Source: a virus
Taxonomy: Duplodnaviria; Heunggongvirae; Uroviricota; Caudoviricetes
DNA length: 5,114 nucleotides
Strand: one strand, 5' to 3'
Virus record (IMG/VR): IMGVR_UViG_2778261276_000007
Each line of letters begins with the position of its first letter. Position 1 is the first letter of the stretch. Below are positions 1 through 5,114 of this stretch, in pieces. A program made the translations under genes and the position numbers. A model generated the notes under the pieces. The model made no database searches. It had not been told where the DNA came from and worked only from the letters and a program-made list of their open reading frames with translations.

Positions 1-1
1 A

Positions 2-1282
2 TTAATTTTTCATTGCTTCGTTATGGGGCATGGTTGGGGCAAACTCGCTTAACTGTGTATTTAACAAAGCTACCTGTGCATTATTGTTTTCAGACATCCA
101 TTTTCCGTATACCTGAAATACCATTTGCGCATCTGCATGGCCCATCTGGTTTGCTATAAATGCCGGGTTAGCACCAGCTGTCAGCGACCAGCAGGCATAA
201 GTATGTCTCGACTGATATGATTTTCGATGGCGGAGTCCGGCACGTTTTATCGCTGCGTCCCACATCTGCCTTATTGAGTCAACGGTAAAATGGTCACCAT
301 AATTTTTTACTCTCGCTGACACTTCAGGTTGAAAAACAAAGGTGCATTTATGTTTTTCTGTTCTGCCATACTCTCTGAGGTGAACATCAATGATATGCTC
401 TTTGCTCAGTCTCGTTAATGTCATCTGACTCCGGAGAGCGTCGATTGCTGGCTTAATAAGATGAATGACCCGATTGGTTCCCGCCTGTGTTTTTGGTACC
501 GTGAAACGGTCTTTTGCTAAATTTCTCCTGATCATCATTGTTCCATTTTTCAGATCTATGTCCTCCCATCCAAGTGCACACAGCTCACCAGGGCGAACGC
601 CAGTATAAACAGAAACACACCATAAATTTTTGGCTTGCTGATTTCTGCACGCATCGATAAGACGGATGAATTCCTCCCGCGAAAGAGGATCCGGAATGGT
701 TCTTGATTCCTTTAATGGCGAGATCCCCTTAAACGGGTTATCTGCCAGGTAACCGTTATCAACACCAAACTGGAACACGGCGTTAAGATTTGTCATGTAA
801 TTATTTACAGTTACAGCCGATCTCCCTGGTTGTGTAACAATATAGTTACTTTTGGGGATCTGGTATCCAGTCAGTAGCTCTTTACGAACCTCCAGTAATT
901 TTTCTTTATTAATCGATGAGGCAAGATTTTTTTCACCGATTATGCTCAGGATATTTTTGATGACGGCACGGTATGTGTTGAGTGATGTTTTTGCGACTTC
1001 AGTTTCTTTCAGTGCCAGAAATTTTTCAGCCAGTTCTTTTATGGTTAAATCTTGTCGAGTCTCACCAAATTTTTCCAGATTGCGTGAGGAGGGAAACTGT
1101 TTTGCATAGTCGAAAACACCAGTTTTTATTGCGTAACAAACAGAGGCGCGTAGCTCACCTGCAACGCGCCTGTTTTTTGCTGTGTCAGGAACCCCCAGGT
1201 TTTCCCTGACTCTTACGCCTTTATAAACAAACCAGATACGTAATTTCCCTCCATGGTTTTCCACGCCTGTCGGATATTTCAT
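2..1282 (-). CDS. Prophage tyrosine-type site-specific integrase, about 426 aa from the ATG at 1282 (ORF is open to an ATG at 1297)
   Basis: 431-codon minus-strand ORF with stop TAA at 2-4. N-terminus MKYPTGVENHGGKLRIWFVYKGVRVRENLG resembles the arm-binding N-domain of prophage integrases. C-terminal region carries the catalytic-box-like segment VRPGE...PKTQAGTNRVIHL...SRHTYACW...GHADAQMVFQVY (Arg, Lys, Arg-His, His, Tyr). The ATG at 1282 has a purine-rich SD-like AGAGAAG 5 nt upstream; the ATG at 1297 has none. Confidence 0.92.
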   Translation of the reverse strand: MKYPTGVENHGGKLRIWFVYKGVRVRENLGVPDTAKNRRVAGELRASVCYAIKTGVFDYAKQFPSSRNLEKFGETRQDLTIKELAEKFLALKETEVAKTSLNTYRAVIKNILSIIGEKNLASSINKEKLLEVRKELLTGYQIPKSNYIVTQPGRSAVTVNNYMTNLNAVFQFGVDNGYLADNPFKGISPLKESRTIPDPLSREEFIRLIDACRNQQAKNLWCVSVYTGVRPGELCALGWEDIDLKNGTMMIRRNLAKDRFTVPKTQAGTNRVIHLIKPAIDALRSQMTLTRLSKEHIIDVHLREYGRTEKHKCTFVFQPEVSARVKNYGDHFTVDSIRQMWDAAIKRAGLRHRKSYQSRHTYACWSLTAGANPAFIANQMGHADAQMVFQVYGKWMSENNNAQVALLNTQLSEFAPTMPHNEAMKN

Positions 1283-1316
1283 TTCAACTTCTCTCATTAG
1301 TTAGTGTGGCTTTTAG

Positions 1317-1568
1317 TCAAGTAAGATGACGTCTTGGTCTTGCTGATGCCTGGCGCTCAATCCAGCGATCAATTTCTTCCAGGTTGTAAAAGCATGGACT
1401 GTTATCCCATGGCATACCGTCATGAGCGACATGCTTATATTCCCTTCCTTCCATAAACGATTTTTCCCGGGCCTTTTTTAACGTACCTTTTTTTATTCCT
1501 TTCAGCGCAATTAACTGCTCTTCGGATACCCATTTGCCGGGAGAGACAATCATGATTACTTCGCTCAT
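1317..1568 (-). CDS. Excisionase / Xis-like small DNA-binding protein (83 aa)
   Basis: Small ORF immediately upstream of int on the same strand, 19 bp gap. Contains a GREY motif (MEGREYKHVAHDG) comparable to lambda Xis KDGREYLFHES. Basic, with a Lys-rich segment (KGIKKGTLKKAREK). Position and size are typical of xis. Confidence 0.75.
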   Translation of the reverse strand: MSEVIMIVSPGKWVSEEQLIALKGIKKGTLKKAREKSFMEGREYKHVAHDGMPWDNSPCFYNLEEIDRWIERQASARPRRHLT

Positions 1569-1597
1569 CGATTTCTTTATCTCTTACATCAGACGAG

Positions 1598-1629
1598 CGC
1601 CGGTTGCAGAATACCAGTCACAACCGGCG
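1598..1629 (-). other. GC-rich perfect 9-bp inverted repeat (CGCCGGTTG / CAACCGGCG, 14-nt loop) in the exonuclease-xis intergenic region; possible RNA stem-loop
   Basis: Seen directly: arms at 1598-1606 and 1621-1629. Lies between the exonuclease stop (1641) and the xis start (1568). No U-tract follows on the minus-strand transcript, so it is not a canonical intrinsic terminator. Confidence 0.4.
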
Positions 1630-1640
1630 ACAGTTGAACA

Positions 1641-4112
1641 TTAAGAATCAGCCTGACTCGGGATCAGTTTTTGCCAGATAACTGAAACGTATTTTGCCAG
1701 GTAACGGGCGTCATCAAGTGCATTATGGCGCTCACCTTCGAATGGAATAGCCGTTCTGGCATCGAAGTCTATGGCTTTCCCCAGCTCAACGATTGTGCGT
1801 ACATCGCGATCGTTGTAGTAACGCCACGGGCAGGGGATCCCCTGCCGTTCGTATGAACGGCGCAAAATCGTGTTGTCGAAGTTGGCTCCATTTCCCCAAA
1901 CCTGAACAAAAAATTCACCGGAGTTTTCGTCGATAAATTCTCGCAATTGTAACAGTGCATCATCTAACGGGATTTCATCGGTCATAATGGCAGATTGCGC
2001 TTCGCGTGATTGCTTAAGCCACCATTTAATGGTGTCCCGATCAATGACTCCGCCAGCAGTTTCCAGATCGATAGTCTTACTAAATTCCGGTCCCATATCT
2101 CCGGTTTGCGGATCGAAAAATATTGCACCTATTGAGATGATCGGGGCATCAGGATTTTTTCCCATGGTTTCAAGGTCGATCATTAGATGGTCACACGTCC
2201 TGCTGGTGGATGTGATTTCGTGATGACCGTTCACCTTAATTGGGTGATCTGCCGTCTCGCCAGTTTCATTATCGCTATTGTGATGCTGATTGCCGCCAGT
2301 GTTCTCCTTGTGTGGATGTTCAGCGCCTTCCATTTCCTCCGGATCATCTTCCTGAACTTCAACCTGATACTCTTCATCGAATGTTTCTTGGTATGTTGCG
2401 TCGCCCATCACCGCGCCACAATCAGGGCAGTTGCCGCCGCCGGTCTGACCGCAGGCGGTGCAGACTTTTTCCACTTCCTGTTGCGCTACTGGTTCAGGCT
2501 GTTTCGTTTCTGGCTCGTTTTGTAACGCATTTGGACTGTTTTGTTCCGCTTTTTGGTAGTTCCGTTCCGATTCATGCTGGTTCTGGTTCACAGAATCGCG
2601 GGTCTGGAGCCCCTTAACCCATTTCGGATCATTCGGGTCACTAATCCCTTCAACAAATTCACCACGTGATGCAGCAAGCAACTTATCGGCGTCAGGCTGG
2701 CTGATATTGGCTGCCTGCATAATTTTGTTTACTTCGTCAGCGGTAACTTTTATCGGCTCTGGTTGTTCTGAATCTTCAGCGGTATCTACATTTTGCGGTA
2801 AGCCCGTGTATGTGCCATTTTTTCGGGCAAAATATTCTTCTTTTGTGATTTCAGTGGCGCCAGCAGCCAGTGCCTTATCCAGACCAGAGAGTTTGTTTGC
2901 GCGACCGTATTTTTCTCCGTCCTTATCTGCGAAGAGGAAATAGAACGGCCCCTCACGCTCTACAGATGGTTCAGCTTCCGGCGCGGTTTCATTTTTTGGG
3001 ATATCAGATACCTCAGTTTCCACTGCATCAGTTTGTGTTTCTGATGACTGGAGAACATCAACAGTGCCCAGGTCTGTTTCTTCATTCTCAAACACGCCCT
3101 TTGTCGTCAGGTATTCGCAGATATATTTGTTCAGTGCTACGGGATCTTTGTGAATGTCGATCGGACGCTCACGGACAAGGCCAAAAATAGTTTGGCGGTC
3201 GTAGCGAAGGGCATCAGGCTGTTTGCGCATTGATGCCGAGATACGCTTCCAGTCTTCGCGGTCGTTGTCGATAACTTCTTTTTTTGCCCAGCGATGGATG
3301 CTGCCGTCAATGTTTCCGGCATCCACATCACTAGGCCAGAGAGCGTAGGCCAGTTCGTCATCCAGTGTTTTCCATGTCTGCTTGTATTCGCGATGAATGG
3401 CAGCAATGACCGGGCTGATTTTTCCTGTTGAATTTTCAGTGTACTGTTGATTGGCTCTGGCGCGGGCGAGATCAACAACAGACGTGTATTTTCCGGTTTC
3501 CTTGCGTTCACCTTCGCGACGTTTTTTCCAGATGCGCATCTCTGCCTGAATTTCGGGCCATTTAGCACCAGGAATACATTTATGCTTAACCCACCCAATG
3601 GCGTGCAACTTAAGCTCCGGATACATGGCGTTAACTTCTGGCATTTTCATCAACGCTTCAACGATATGTCCGTCGAATGTTGCCATGTCTTCCTGCAACA
3701 ATTCCTGTGCGCTAATAACCATATCAACGGTGATGTTTTCACATGTGTCGAACTTAACCATGACAGCGTTCTGTACTTCAGGGGCCAGCTTGTCAAAAGT
3801 GACGTTCATCGGATCGGATTCAGTCTCAACCGGGACAAAAGAAGCAGACTCCTCATCCCAGCGGTTTTCCTGCATATATTCAGCATCCCATGAATCGAGG
3901 GCAGGGCGGGGTATGCCAGGTTTATCCTCGCAGACAATAAATTTATAAGCGCAGTCCTGAGCAGCCGGATAATGTTCCAGGAATTGCCAGTGAAATTTTG
4001 CTCGAGCACGGCGTTCGTCGCCAGCTTCAATGGCTGTGGCTACAGCCACAGCGCCTTCTTCCCTTGTTGCCAGTTCGTCAGGAATAGCGGCGCAAATAAA
4101 GACTTTACTCAT
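1641..4112 (-). CDS. Large prophage early-region protein (823 aa) with C-terminal DnaQ-like DEDDh 3'-5' exonuclease domain; of the type often annotated exodeoxyribonuclease VIII-like; N-terminus resembles K-12 Qin YdfE
   Basis: Minus-strand ORF open from 4148 (TTG) but first ATGs are at 4127 and 4112; the ATG at 4112 (MSKVFICAAIPDE...) has SD-like GAGGT 8 nt upstream. Stop TAA at 1641-1643. C-terminal 180 aa (about 1644-2183) carries exonuclease motifs MIDLETMG (Exo I), WGNGANFDNTIL (Exo II) and HNALDDARYLAKY (Exo III). A CxxC-x9-CxxC zinc-ribbon-like element (CTACGQTGGGNCPDCG, about 2415-2462) and acidic/His-rich linkers precede it. Confidence 0.85.
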   Translation of the reverse strand: MSKVFICAAIPDELATREEGAVAVATAIEAGDERRARAKFHWQFLEHYPAAQDCAYKFIVCEDKPGIPRPALDSWDAEYMQENRWDEESASFVPVETESDPMNVTFDKLAPEVQNAVMVKFDTCENITVDMVISAQELLQEDMATFDGHIVEALMKMPEVNAMYPELKLHAIGWVKHKCIPGAKWPEIQAEMRIWKKRREGERKETGKYTSVVDLARARANQQYTENSTGKISPVIAAIHREYKQTWKTLDDELAYALWPSDVDAGNIDGSIHRWAKKEVIDNDREDWKRISASMRKQPDALRYDRQTIFGLVRERPIDIHKDPVALNKYICEYLTTKGVFENEETDLGTVDVLQSSETQTDAVETEVSDIPKNETAPEAEPSVEREGPFYFLFADKDGEKYGRANKLSGLDKALAAGATEITKEEYFARKNGTYTGLPQNVDTAEDSEQPEPIKVTADEVNKIMQAANISQPDADKLLAASRGEFVEGISDPNDPKWVKGLQTRDSVNQNQHESERNYQKAEQNSPNALQNEPETKQPEPVAQQEVEKVCTACGQTGGGNCPDCGAVMGDATYQETFDEEYQVEVQEDDPEEMEGAEHPHKENTGGNQHHNSDNETGETADHPIKVNGHHEITSTSRTCDHLMIDLETMGKNPDAPIISIGAIFFDPQTGDMGPEFSKTIDLETAGGVIDRDTIKWWLKQSREAQSAIMTDEIPLDDALLQLREFIDENSGEFFVQVWGNGANFDNTILRRSYERQGIPCPWRYYNDRDVRTIVELGKAIDFDARTAIPFEGERHNALDDARYLAKYVSVIWQKLIPSQADS

Positions 4113-4204
4113 TTGTTTTAACCTCATGACAGATTTAAGGATGAACAAATCCCTGCCATTGCTGGCATATAAGAATGAAACCGGATATTTATTACGGAAC
4201 TGTT

Positions 4205-4396
4205 TTAAAGACCTGCCGGGATTTCGATATTATCCTGGTGAATAACTTTATCGACCGGGTAACAGTTACCGGGAATTTTCTGTTCGGTTGCTGCAGTCAT
4301 ACACTCCTGCATTGTCCTGTGAACACTGACTGCAATATCAACTGGCTCTCCGGAAACAAGAAAAACTGTCAGAACAAGCACAAATGCTGAATTCAT
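4205..4396 (-). CDS. ydfD: YdfD-like small membrane/lysis peptide (63 aa) with hydrophobic N-terminus
   Basis: ATG at 4396-4394 preceded by SD-like AAGGA 8 nt upstream; stop TAA at 4205-4207. Product MNSAFVLVLTVFLVSGEPVDIAVSV... has an N-terminal hydrophobic helix followed by a two-Cys polar tail. Sequence and length match my recollection of Qin prophage YdfD; the longer ORF-track start at 4450 lacks a well-spaced RBS and would overlap dicB. Confidence 0.7.
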   Translation of the reverse strand: MNSAFVLVLTVFLVSGEPVDIAVSVHRTMQECMTAATEQKIPGNCYPVDKVIHQDNIEIPAGL

Positions 4397-4581
4397 TGTG
4401 CACATCCTTTTGGCATCAGACGTAAACGAGCCAGCATTGAAACAATGCATATTTTATTTAATAGCTCCCGTTCTTGTTTTCTCTTGTTAATGGCATCTTC
4501 AGTAAATACTGGGTTACTGATAGTGACACCAATTTCAAAACAACCTTCAGACGTATTAACGTTTGGTAATAACGTTTTCAT
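4393..4581 (-). CDS. dicB: DicB-like cell division inhibitor (62 aa)
   Basis: ORF MKTLLPNVNTSEGCFEIGVTISNPVFTEDAINKRKQERELLNKICIVSMLARLRLMPKGCAQ matches my recollection of Qin prophage DicB (62 aa). Strong SD GAGGA 7 nt upstream of the ATG at 4581. Stop TGA (4395-4393) overlaps the ydfD ATG as ATGA. Confidence 0.78.
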   Translation of the reverse strand: MKTLLPNVNTSEGCFEIGVTISNPVFTEDAINKRKQERELLNKICIVSMLARLRLMPKGCAQ

Positions 4582-4617
4582 TATCGCGTCCTCAACAATG
4601 AATTTTGTGATGCAGTG

Positions 4618-4657
4618 CCTGGTGCCTCCAGGTGACGTTAACCAGTTAACAATTAAC
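4618..4657 (-). promoter_or_regulatory. dicB leader region with palindromic/repeated motifs (CCTGG-N5-CCAGG; GTTAAC-CA-GTTAAC-AATTAAC); candidate operator or RNA-processing structure
   Basis: Seen directly 25-75 nt upstream of the dicB start codon. Function is inferred only. Confidence 0.3.
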
Positions 4658-4839
4658 GCCGGATATGTGCTGTGGCAGCCGCATGTTCTGGTTCGATAAG
4701 TCTGACGAACGGGCGATATTCAGCGATATCAGAAAAGAAGGATACACATTACGCAATGGGAGACGCTTGATTATCAGCCCTGACATTATCGCAGATTTTC
4801 GTGCATTATCATTTGCAGACGCATCTTTTTCGATGGTTG

Positions 4840-4880
4840 TGGATTTGCCCCTATATTTCCAGACATCTGTTATCACTTAA
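4840..4880. repeat. IS2 right terminal inverted repeat (IRR)
   Basis: Characteristic IS2 end sequence TGGATTTGCCCC...ATCACTTAA; the transposase stop codon (4851-4853) lies inside it. Confidence 0.8.
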
Positions 4881-5114
4881 CCCATTACAAGCCCGCTGCC
4901 GCAGATATTCCCGTGGCGAGCGATAACCCAGCGCACTATGCGGATGCCATTCGTTATAATGCTCGAACGCCTCTGCAAGGTTCTTTGCTGCCGTTAACCC
5001 GTCTGGTTTGGGCATGATACTGATGTAGTCACGCTTTATCGTTTTCACGAAGCTCTCTGCTATTCCGTTACTCTCCGGACTCCGCACCGCCGTGTTCTTC
5101 GGTTCAAGTCCCAA
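4851..5114 (-). CDS. insD: IS2 transposase orfB (InsD-like), C-terminal fragment; 5' part lies beyond the window edge
   Basis: Translation ...[76 protein letters not shown] is the conserved C-terminus of an IS3-family DDE transposase and matches the IS2 InsD end as I recall it. The ORF runs to the window edge; the first codon at 5114-5112 is TTG, not a genuine start. Confidence 0.88.

Follow-up and report, generated by a model that had tools for sequence, protein, structure and literature searches.

The DNA analyzed here, a stretch of 5,114 nt that we call the window, is filled from position 2 to 4581 by five uninterrupted minus-strand genes encoding an integrase (int), an excisionase (xis), an 823-aa nuclease, YdfD, and DicB; beyond dicB lie a deletion scar, an internal fragment of a methyltransferase gene, and one end of an IS2 element (Table 1). 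The five open frames described in an earlier note on this DNA were recovered at the positions it gave, both in the ORF list and by family matches, and each of the five proteins matched its expected Pfam family far above threshold. Open frames of 426 and 823 codons exclude chance by their length. Positions 1-4840 are, moreover, 100% identical to annotated genes of strains 1303, G4/9, and EC26. The 426-aa length of Int is counted from the RefSeq ATG, with a possible ORF start at 1297, and the nuclease ORF could reach upstream to a TTG at 4148. The earlier note claimed plausible ribosome-binding sites for all five genes; we found Shine-Dalgarno-like motifs before the nuclease gene (GAGG), ydfD (AAGGA), and dicB (GAGGA), and weaker ones before int and xis. 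The ydfD and dicB genes overlap by 4 nt; YdfD matched Pfam DUF1482 with 91 bits, and DicB matched its family over the full length (PF05358, 136.8 bits; NCBIfam NF049927, 132.8 bits against a cut-off of 100). Scanning for repeats and tRNAs returned nothing meaningful across the window. The earlier note, which covered positions 2-4581, had overlooked the deletion junction and the IS2 end.

Table 1. Features located in the window, with the evidence for each.
Feature	Position	Strand	Evidence
int, tyrosine integrase, 426 aa	2..1282	-	ORF; PF12167, PF00589
Segment of 2,184 bp missing from K-12 Qin	1162..3345		blastn; K-12 annotation IS2E, ydfE', intQ'
xis, excisionase, 83 aa	1317..1568	-	ORF; DUF1233; PHROG 539
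823-aa nuclease, full-length form of K-12 YdfE	1641..4112	-	ORF; PHROG 2082
Nuclease residues 642-813, predicted DEDDh (DnaQ-like, Rv2179c/T4 DexA-like) 3'-5' exonuclease domain	1674..2189	-	PF16473
Nuclease residues 262-627, central region common to the non-catalytic region of Rac RecE	2232..3329	-	BLASTP
Nuclease residues 1-256, the part surviving in K-12 as ydfE	3346..4112	-	100% nt identity
ydfD, 63-aa lysis protein	4205..4396	-	DUF1482; RefSeq 'lysis protein YdfD'
dicB, 62-aa cell division inhibitor	4393..4581	-	Pfam DicB; NF049927
Scar of a 3,839-bp deletion, GATA microhomology	4662..4665		Alignment to PhiR42_1
DNA methyltransferase gene, internal fragment	4666..4839	+	PHROG 11564, PHROG 954; PhiR42_1 alignment
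IS2 right end: terminal inverted repeat and C-terminal part of InsD	4840..5114	-	K-12 IS2E; Pfam rve_3

Both genes of the recombination pair, int and xis, are present in intact form. Int matched PF12167 over residues 4-67 (84 bits) and PF00589 over residues 201-392 (66 bits), both above cut-off, and differs by only 2-4 residues from the integrases of mEp460, Tritos, and PhiR42_1 (99.1-99.5% aa identity), while a full-length alignment to IntR of the Rac prophage gave 43% identity. Residues R230 and H382 aligned with R212 and H333 of lambda Int in an automatic alignment that was shifted near the first-His stretch; K264, R359, and Y392 were assigned as catalytic residues from motifs. The position of the first catalytic His is apparently occupied by Tyr356. 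We considered whether this residue marks a dead integrase and rejected the idea: because Rac IntR and the phage integrases, that of mEp460 among them, have the same Tyr, it is characteristic of the family rather than a lesion. Xis matched DUF1233 of Pfam with 108 bits as well as the PHROG 539 excisionase family, and the identical protein is encoded by mEp460, Tritos, and PhiR42_1. Judged from sequence, then, the coding sequences of the arm, including those of Int and Xis, look functional.

Only 1 nt of the window lies beyond the int stop codon, and the chromosomal flank and the att core are outside it. In every genome that we read, sequences 100% identical over positions 1-4840 adjoin rspB, and the remainder of the source prophage and its attL are inferred from these relatives. 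In the sister strain 1303, attL and attR are both present and jointly rebuild attB and attP exactly. The rebuilt attB is an intact ydfJ, found at 100% identity in many genomes, and at least 80% of attB was found at one place in 2,009 of 5,426 complete E. coli genomes. Empty ydfJ sites are common, which indicates that the element integrates and is missing from many strains. The attP rebuilt from strain 1303 aligns collinearly with that of mEp460 (99.4% over 1.5 kb). Int and Xis thus appear usable, as do the att sites observed in strain 1303.

The 823-aa protein consists of an N-terminal region, an acidic linker with a Cys4 motif, and a C-terminal DnaQ-like exonuclease domain. PHROG 2082 ('exonuclease') matched residues 1-822 of 823 with 1,824 bits, the precomputed Pfam matches are YdfE_N, YdfE_C, and Rv2179c-like, and the identical protein in strain 1303 is annotated 'exonuclease'. 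The C-terminal domain scored 222.9 bits against PF16473 (cut-off 27) and carries the Exo motifs DxE, D, and Hx4D as IDLET (645-649), NGANFD (741-746), and HNALDD (796-801). The solved structure nearest by sequence is PDB 8kel (E = 1.5e-6), which we take to be T4 DexA. The C-terminus is a DEDDh domain with a predicted 3'-5' exonuclease activity on DNA or RNA. Several records annotate the protein as RecE, a reading we rejected. In BLASTP, its centre resembles residues 278-592 of K-12 RecE (39% identity, E = 2e-61; far higher over residues ~475-620), but the similarity ends at RecE residue 592; the NCBIfam RecE equivalog model was matched at its positions 271-600 only, and the score of 281.6 bits falls below its cut-off of 1,269; and the C-terminus is Rv2179c-like. 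The 'exonuclease VIII' labels on this protein are thus wrong: it shares only the non-catalytic middle of RecE and joins this to a DnaQ-like 3'-5' exonuclease. Comparison of this lineage with mEp460 indicated that the nuclease is under purifying selection, with dN/dS of 0.09 over residues 1-330 and 0.14 over the exonuclease domain.

The earlier note had described the same arm as decayed in the Qin prophage of K-12, where intQ is a pseudogene, ydfE a short N-terminal piece of the large protein, and an IS2 remnant sits between them. Alignment to the K-12 Qin region bore this out on every point, with YdfE aligning to the start of the nuclease and int related to intQ. By blastn, window positions 3346-4665 are 100% identical at the nucleotide level to K-12 dicB-ydfD-ydfE, and positions 1-1161 are 98.9% identical to intQ (13 mismatches in 1,161 nt). 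The intervening segment, spanning int codons 1-40, xis, and nuclease residues 257-823, is missing from K-12, and a 706-bp IS2 remnant stands in its place. As a result, YdfE corresponds to residues 1-256 of the 823-aa protein, with IS2 entering at residue 257; intQ lacks its first 40 codons, and xis is absent. K-12 Qin is an independently damaged copy of the same arm, in which IS2 probably inserted into int before an adjacent deletion of ~2.2 kb ran back into the nuclease gene. The window documents precisely how the ydfE and intQ pseudogenes of K-12 arose.

In this respect K-12 is the exception, because an intact arm occurs widely in E. coli as well as in sequenced phages. Of the 5,426 complete genomes, 1,949 (36%) contained at least 80% of the window, and only 351 the K-12 junction. 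Over positions 1-4665, nucleotide identity is 99.7% to PhiR42_1 (PV340562), 99.1% to Tritos (OV696610), and 94.9% to mEp460_ev081 (LR597641).

Upstream of dicB the window departs from all of these. Similarity to K-12 and the phages breaks off at position 4665: positions 1-4665 correspond to 1064-5728 of PhiR42_1, and positions 4662-4852 to 9568-9756. Lost in the deletion were dicF, ydfC/B/A, dicA, dicC, a cII-like gene, gene O, a DUF977 gene, and the first 8 codons of the methyltransferase gene; the operon promoter dicBp would, judged by its position, have gone with them. The dicF region is absent from the window by blastn, and DicF gave no Rfam match there. An Rfam match to STnc100 at 4606-4757, which spans the scar, was rejected as chance (20.9 bits against a gathering threshold of 47, E = 0.2).

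The methyltransferase fragment is bounded 5' by the deletion and 3' by IS2, and alignment to PhiR42_1 indicated that the gene is interrupted at its VVLDPPH motif. The IS2 end, the sole one within the window, comprises 277 nt that match the right end of K-12 IS2E at 100% identity, with the terminal sequence GGGGCAAATCCA at the junction. Its transposase gene is oriented as the arm is, reading toward dicB. The junction between IS2 and the methyltransferase gene was found in none of the 5,426 complete E. coli genomes and not in a one-genome-per-species collection, no record was found for either of the two fusion ORFs that cross it, and IS2 was absent from this site in eight contexts of the exact 823-aa protein.

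We also considered how the arm might be transcribed. In K-12, dicBp is under repression by DicA, and ydfA-E belong to the operon (PMC10448788). Within the window, the counts of promoters and terminators were not above shuffled expectation (6 promoters found in the scan, 8 expected), and we therefore claim neither an IS2-derived nor an internal promoter. On the minus strand, positions 4785-4833 contain two weak matches resembling promoters, in a scan that overall was not above chance. Every relative that we examined, identical over 1-4840, carries a decayed prophage that lacks a repressor and has truncated capsid and terminase genes and several IS elements. Two genomes retain just these five genes of the prophage, intact and 100% identical to the window, after an IS1-associated deletion.

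These observations very probably place the window at the attachment-site-proximal end of the early-left operon of a Qin-type lambdoid prophage, inserted at ydfJ/rspB in a non-K-12 E. coli, as a coding-intact arm of a defective prophage. Gene integrity, the relation to K-12, the two junctions, and the att sites of strain 1303 are observed; we infer the operon logic, from the K-12 literature and phage maps, as well as the transcriptional silence and the order of events. In the intact phage, dicBp, repressed by the CI-like DicA, would drive ydfA-ydfB-ydfC-dicF-dicB-ydfD-nuclease-xis-int. Upon induction, DicB would block host cell division and YdfD would promote lysis; the 823-aa protein would act as a DnaQ-like 3'-5' exonuclease at the position of the lambda recombination genes, and recombination between attL and attR at the 11-bp core GAAATCCATAA would follow, carried out by Xis and Int. 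The 3.8-kb deletion took dicF, the replication gene, both regulators, and, by position, the promoter, and IS2, ~260 bp upstream of dicB, would have landed later. With promoter and regulators deleted, the arm is intact in its coding sequences but would no longer be transcribed natively; silence or weak read-through is its likeliest state. Recent damage is the probable reason why the five distal genes, 99-100% identical to their counterparts in sequenced phages, remain intact.

A defective element of this kind may still excise, with low-level Int and Xis produced by read-through from IS2 or from weak internal promoters and an occasional curing of the cryptic prophage. Recombinase, excisionase, and att substrates look intact, IS2 transcription is directed toward the arm, and there is precedent in K-12, where low-frequency excision is seen for seven of the nine cryptic prophages but not for Qin, owing to its inactive intQ (PMC3105296). 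Against this stand the lack of a promoter signal above chance, the ~3.3 kb of toxic or large genes between IS2 and xis, and an attL known from strain 1303 and not from the source strain, and we regard such excision as possible though somewhat unlikely.

Retention of the five genes alone in some strains weakens the argument from recency, as it could instead indicate selection. The arm might then be a domesticated module kept for host benefit, either through stress or phage tolerance conferred by DicB or through the nuclease, rather than being merely young. Its presence in over a third of complete E. coli genomes and the benefits of DicB reported for K-12 (PMC3105296) would fit. However, near-identity to the phage copies leaves too little time for visible decay, K-12 has lost most of the arm without known cost, and expression is doubtful with the promoter gone; we consider domestication improbable. 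A more elaborate version, in which host selection keeps the arm after the prophage is gone and the nearby IS2 might drive low-level transcription, making it a host-controlled stress or anti-phage, self-curing module, is more doubtful still. Of the earlier description of a functional-looking module, possibly excision-competent, the functional look stands, with coding sequences near-identical to those of phages; that the arm belongs to a functional, inducible, excision-competent Qin-like prophage is highly improbable, since despite Int and Xis essentially identical to those of sequenced phages, an att core with both flanks intact in strain 1303, and common empty ydfJ sites, a deletion right beside the arm has taken dicF, the operon promoter, the replication gene, the repressor, and the cro-like gene, IS2 interrupts the remainder, and the relatives have truncated structural genes and several IS elements.

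Beyond annotation, the significance of the locus is small. The arm is already known from many E. coli genomes and from sequenced phages, and its nuclease class was described in 2025. For studies of DicB and DicF, the window exemplifies natural strains that have retained dicB while losing dicF, dicA, and the promoter.

Compared with its nearest counterparts, the window shares with K-12 Qin the ydfJ/rspB site and DNA-identical dicB, ydfD, and first 256 nuclease codons. K-12 Qin keeps dicF, ydfABC, and dicA/dicC, all of which the lineage of the window has deleted, and its IS2 lies between ydfE' and intQ' rather than upstream of dicB. The Rac prophage likewise has a large nuclease gene at the same place in its early-left operon, with the RecE middle in common, an Int related at the 43% level, and a weakly similar excisionase, XisR. 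In RecE, however, the nuclease domain is 5'-3', whereas the catalytic domain of the window protein is of the DEDDh 3'-5' type, and, unlike in Rac, no gene for a recT-like annealing protein follows the nuclease.

Tritos, mEp460_ev081, and PhiR42_1 share with the window the order dicB-ydfD-823-aa nuclease-xis-int, followed by the same attP. Where the window has a scar and IS2, the immunity and replication region upstream is complete in these phage records and includes dicA/dicC-like immunity genes, and their structural genes are full-length; dicF, which the window lacks, is also found in Tritos and PhiR42_1. Tritos is the prototype of a lambdoid class with a nuclease but with neither an annealing protein nor an anti-RecBCD function, and DnaQ-like 3'-5' nucleases have been reported in lambdoid recombination modules, in work that did not establish the biochemical role of the nuclease (Genome Res 2025, PMC12315714). 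Tritos carries the same 823-aa gene with 9 residue differences, and the window is a prophage copy of this Tritos-type module.

The five-gene minus-strand arm dicB-ydfD-nuclease-xis-int is a common, annotated allele that is also present in sequenced phages and is already known; here the prophage that contains it is defective, its control region having been lost. The five open frames proposed in the earlier note at 2-4581 were borne out by ORF calls and family matches. Family profile searches identified arm-binding and catalytic phage integrase domains in the int product and an Rv2179c-like exonuclease domain at residues 642-813 of the 823-aa nuclease, each far over threshold, while the xis product was a DUF1233 excisionase, well past threshold. 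The ydfD and dicB products matched DUF1482 (YdfD) and DicB, both far over threshold, and PHROGs and NCBIfam concurred with these assignments. Plausible ribosome-binding sites had been proposed for all five genes: the motifs are good 5' of the nuclease gene, ydfD and dicB, but weaker 5' of int and xis.

Features of the arm and of the region upstream of dicB
Feature	Position	Strand	Description
int	2-1282	minus	open frame, 426 aa
xis	1317-1568	minus	open frame, 83 aa
823-aa protein (nuclease)	1641-4112	minus	open frame
ydfD	4205-4396	minus	open frame, 63 aa
dicB	4393-4581	minus	open frame, 62 aa
deletion scar	4662-4665		3,839 bp lost relative to PhiR42_1; GATA microhomology (4 bases) at joint
IS2 right end	4840-5114		transposase gene reads toward dicB; in methyltransferase remnant at VVLDPPH motif

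Using the K-12 MG1655 Qin region as the reference for alignment, we found the comparison with K-12 drawn from the sequence alone to be correct to the base. The two relationships on which it hung, K-12 YdfE as an N-terminal piece of the 823-aa protein and int as a relative of the intQ remnant, both held: window 3346-4665, spanning dicB, ydfD and ydfE codons 1-256, is 100% identical to K-12 across 1,320 nt, with the K-12 ydfE frame entering the IS2E remnant at residue 257, and window 1-1161 is 98.9% identical to K-12 intQ, the frame of which is open over the matched part but lacks the first 40 codons. The IS2 remnant said to lie between ydfE and intQ is there as well, as 706 bp in place of window 1162-3345 (2,184 bp), so that K-12 is missing the start of int, the entire xis and nuclease residues 257-823. 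The intact right terminus of the IS2E remnant abuts int. The simplest history for K-12 is insertion of IS2 into int and then deletion from within IS2 back into the nuclease gene, an order that we infer. The small K-12 gene between intQ and rspB, ynfP, appears to be a displaced N-terminal piece of ydfJ.

Strains 1303, G4/9 and EC26 are among several complete genomes that match window 1-4840 at 100% identity, and in these genomes the arm adjoins rspB, the same place as Qin in K-12. Counts were taken over 5,426 complete E. coli genomes: 1,949 have 80% or more of the window at one place, 351 have the K-12-type ydfE-IS2-intQ junction (mostly K-12 laboratory derivatives), and 2,009 have 80% or more of the reconstructed empty site, an intact ydfJ across GAAATCCATAA, many at full length and 100% identity. 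A survey of 189 strains had already described Qin as highly variable and as inserted in the 5' end of ydfJ (PMC6379469).

By tblastn, four phage records encode the 823-aa protein and the integrase with identities of at least 99%: PhiR42_1 (which originates from ECOR13), Tritos, mEp460_ev081 and HannyBb. In the three records examined, PhiR42_1, Tritos and mEp460, the order dicB-ydfD-nuclease-xis-int is followed by attP, and upstream of the arm they have an immunity region of the CI/Cro type as well as a replication gene; the structural genes are full-length in PhiR42_1, the only one of the three read from end to end. Over window 1-4665 the nucleotide identities are 99.7%, 99.1% and 94.9%, respectively; all three encode the same Xis as the window, with Int changed at 2-4 residues. 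Tritos is the prototype of a class of lambdoid recombination modules that have a nuclease and no annealing protein, as set out in a 2025 paper that also describes modules of this kind with DnaQ-like 3'-5' nucleases (PMC12315714). Given these phage records and this paper, the intact arm is therefore already on record, annotated and discussed. Divergence from mEp460 is mosaic: int and xis are near-identical (dS 0.004 and 0; window 1-1568), whereas dS is 0.2 in the nuclease gene (1641-4112), a pattern indicating that a recombination boundary separates xis from the nuclease gene. Two lineage-specific substitutions are Int Thr75 (window 1058-1060), which is Ala in PhiR42_1, Tritos and mEp460 and in K-12 intQ, and nuclease Leu805 (1698-1700), just past the HNALDDARY exonuclease motif, which is Gln in the three phages.

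Homology with K-12 and with the intact phages breaks off at window 4665. Window 4662-4852 picks up 3,839 bp further along PhiR42_1, within a DNA methyltransferase gene, and the stretch lost carries dicF, ydfC, ydfB, ydfA, dicA (a CI-like repressor), dicC (cro-like), a cII/YdaT-like gene, the replication gene O and a DUF977 gene; neither blastn nor Rfam found dicF in the window. In K-12 the entire operon is driven from dicBp, a promoter under DicA repression (PMC10448788); judged by its position, this promoter is lost in the deletion too, so that dicB no longer has its native promoter or its repressor. Only 4 of the 5,426 genomes have precisely this joint in one piece. The IS2 junction at 4840/4841 cuts the methyltransferase remnant about 260 bp upstream of dicB, and this insertion was found in none of the 5,426 genomes, nor in the other collections tried. 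The earlier note had missed both the scar and the IS2 insertion. Two weak promoter-like matches lie just downstream of IS2 (4785-4833, minus strand), in a scan of the window whose counts were not above chance.

In strain 1303, the capsid and terminase genes are truncated, IS3 and ISNCY elements are present, and no repressor was found in the prophage; the prophage of strain H2 is decayed in a similar way. The exact 823-aa protein was viewed in eight contexts, every one of them a cryptic element. In two of these, the E. coli loci L011 (9520-14112) and L013 (8767-14112), homology stops 12 bp upstream of dicB, at a putative IS1-associated deletion that has reduced the prophage to the five-gene arm; every gene of this arm is intact there and shares 100% identity with the window. 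In L013, an IS1 lies between the ydfJ fragment and dicB.

The suggestion of a functional-looking arm, possibly from an excision-competent prophage, stands in part: the genes are intact and the att substrates look sound, as judged in strain 1303, but the control region is lost. In that strain each end of the prophage carries an 11-bp att core, GAAATCCATAA (L003 8595-8605 and 37804-37814); joining the outer flanks gives an intact ydfJ, and joining the inner flanks gives an attP collinear with that of mEp460 (99.4% identity over 1.5 kb). The core falls inside ydfJ. Int R230 and H382 align with lambda Int R212 and H333, and the expected K, R and Y motifs are present; the first catalytic His position appears to be Tyr, which is common to Rac IntR and the integrases of the phages above and is therefore a family trait. 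What excision lacks is expression, the native promoter and regulators being gone. For this reason, and because the promoter scan did not exceed chance, a fully inducible prophage is rated very unlikely; excision might happen occasionally or be driven in trans. Qin of K-12 does not excise, which its authors blame on inactive intQ (PMC3105296).

Several records label the 823-aa protein as RecE ("exonuclease VIII"), an identification that we reject because the score against the RecE equivalog model is below the cut-off (281.6 bits vs 1,269) and a DEDDh domain, complete with its three Exo motifs, forms the catalytic end. The closest solved relative by sequence is PDB entry 8kel, which we take to be T4 DexA. 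No annealing-protein gene was found after the nuclease gene. PHROG 2082 covers the protein end to end, PHROG 5943 (257 positions) covers residues 1-257, a stretch as long as the YdfE fragment of K-12, and YdfE_N and YdfE_C are defined in newer Pfam releases. Values of dN/dS against mEp460 (0.09 in the N-terminal part, 0.14 in the exonuclease domain and 0.38 in the acidic linker) show that the first two are under purifying selection and that the linker is much freer. Residues 262-627 (window 2232-3329) align to RecE 278-592 with 39% identity overall, and identity is much higher over residues ~475-620, which include a CxxC...CxxC (Cys4) motif; this shared middle explains the frequent mislabel. 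In Rac RecE, the shared region is the non-catalytic one, and the nuclease domains differ in kind, DEDDh in the 823-aa protein and RecE-type in Rac RecE; the two proteins look as if different nuclease domains had been exchanged on a shared scaffold.
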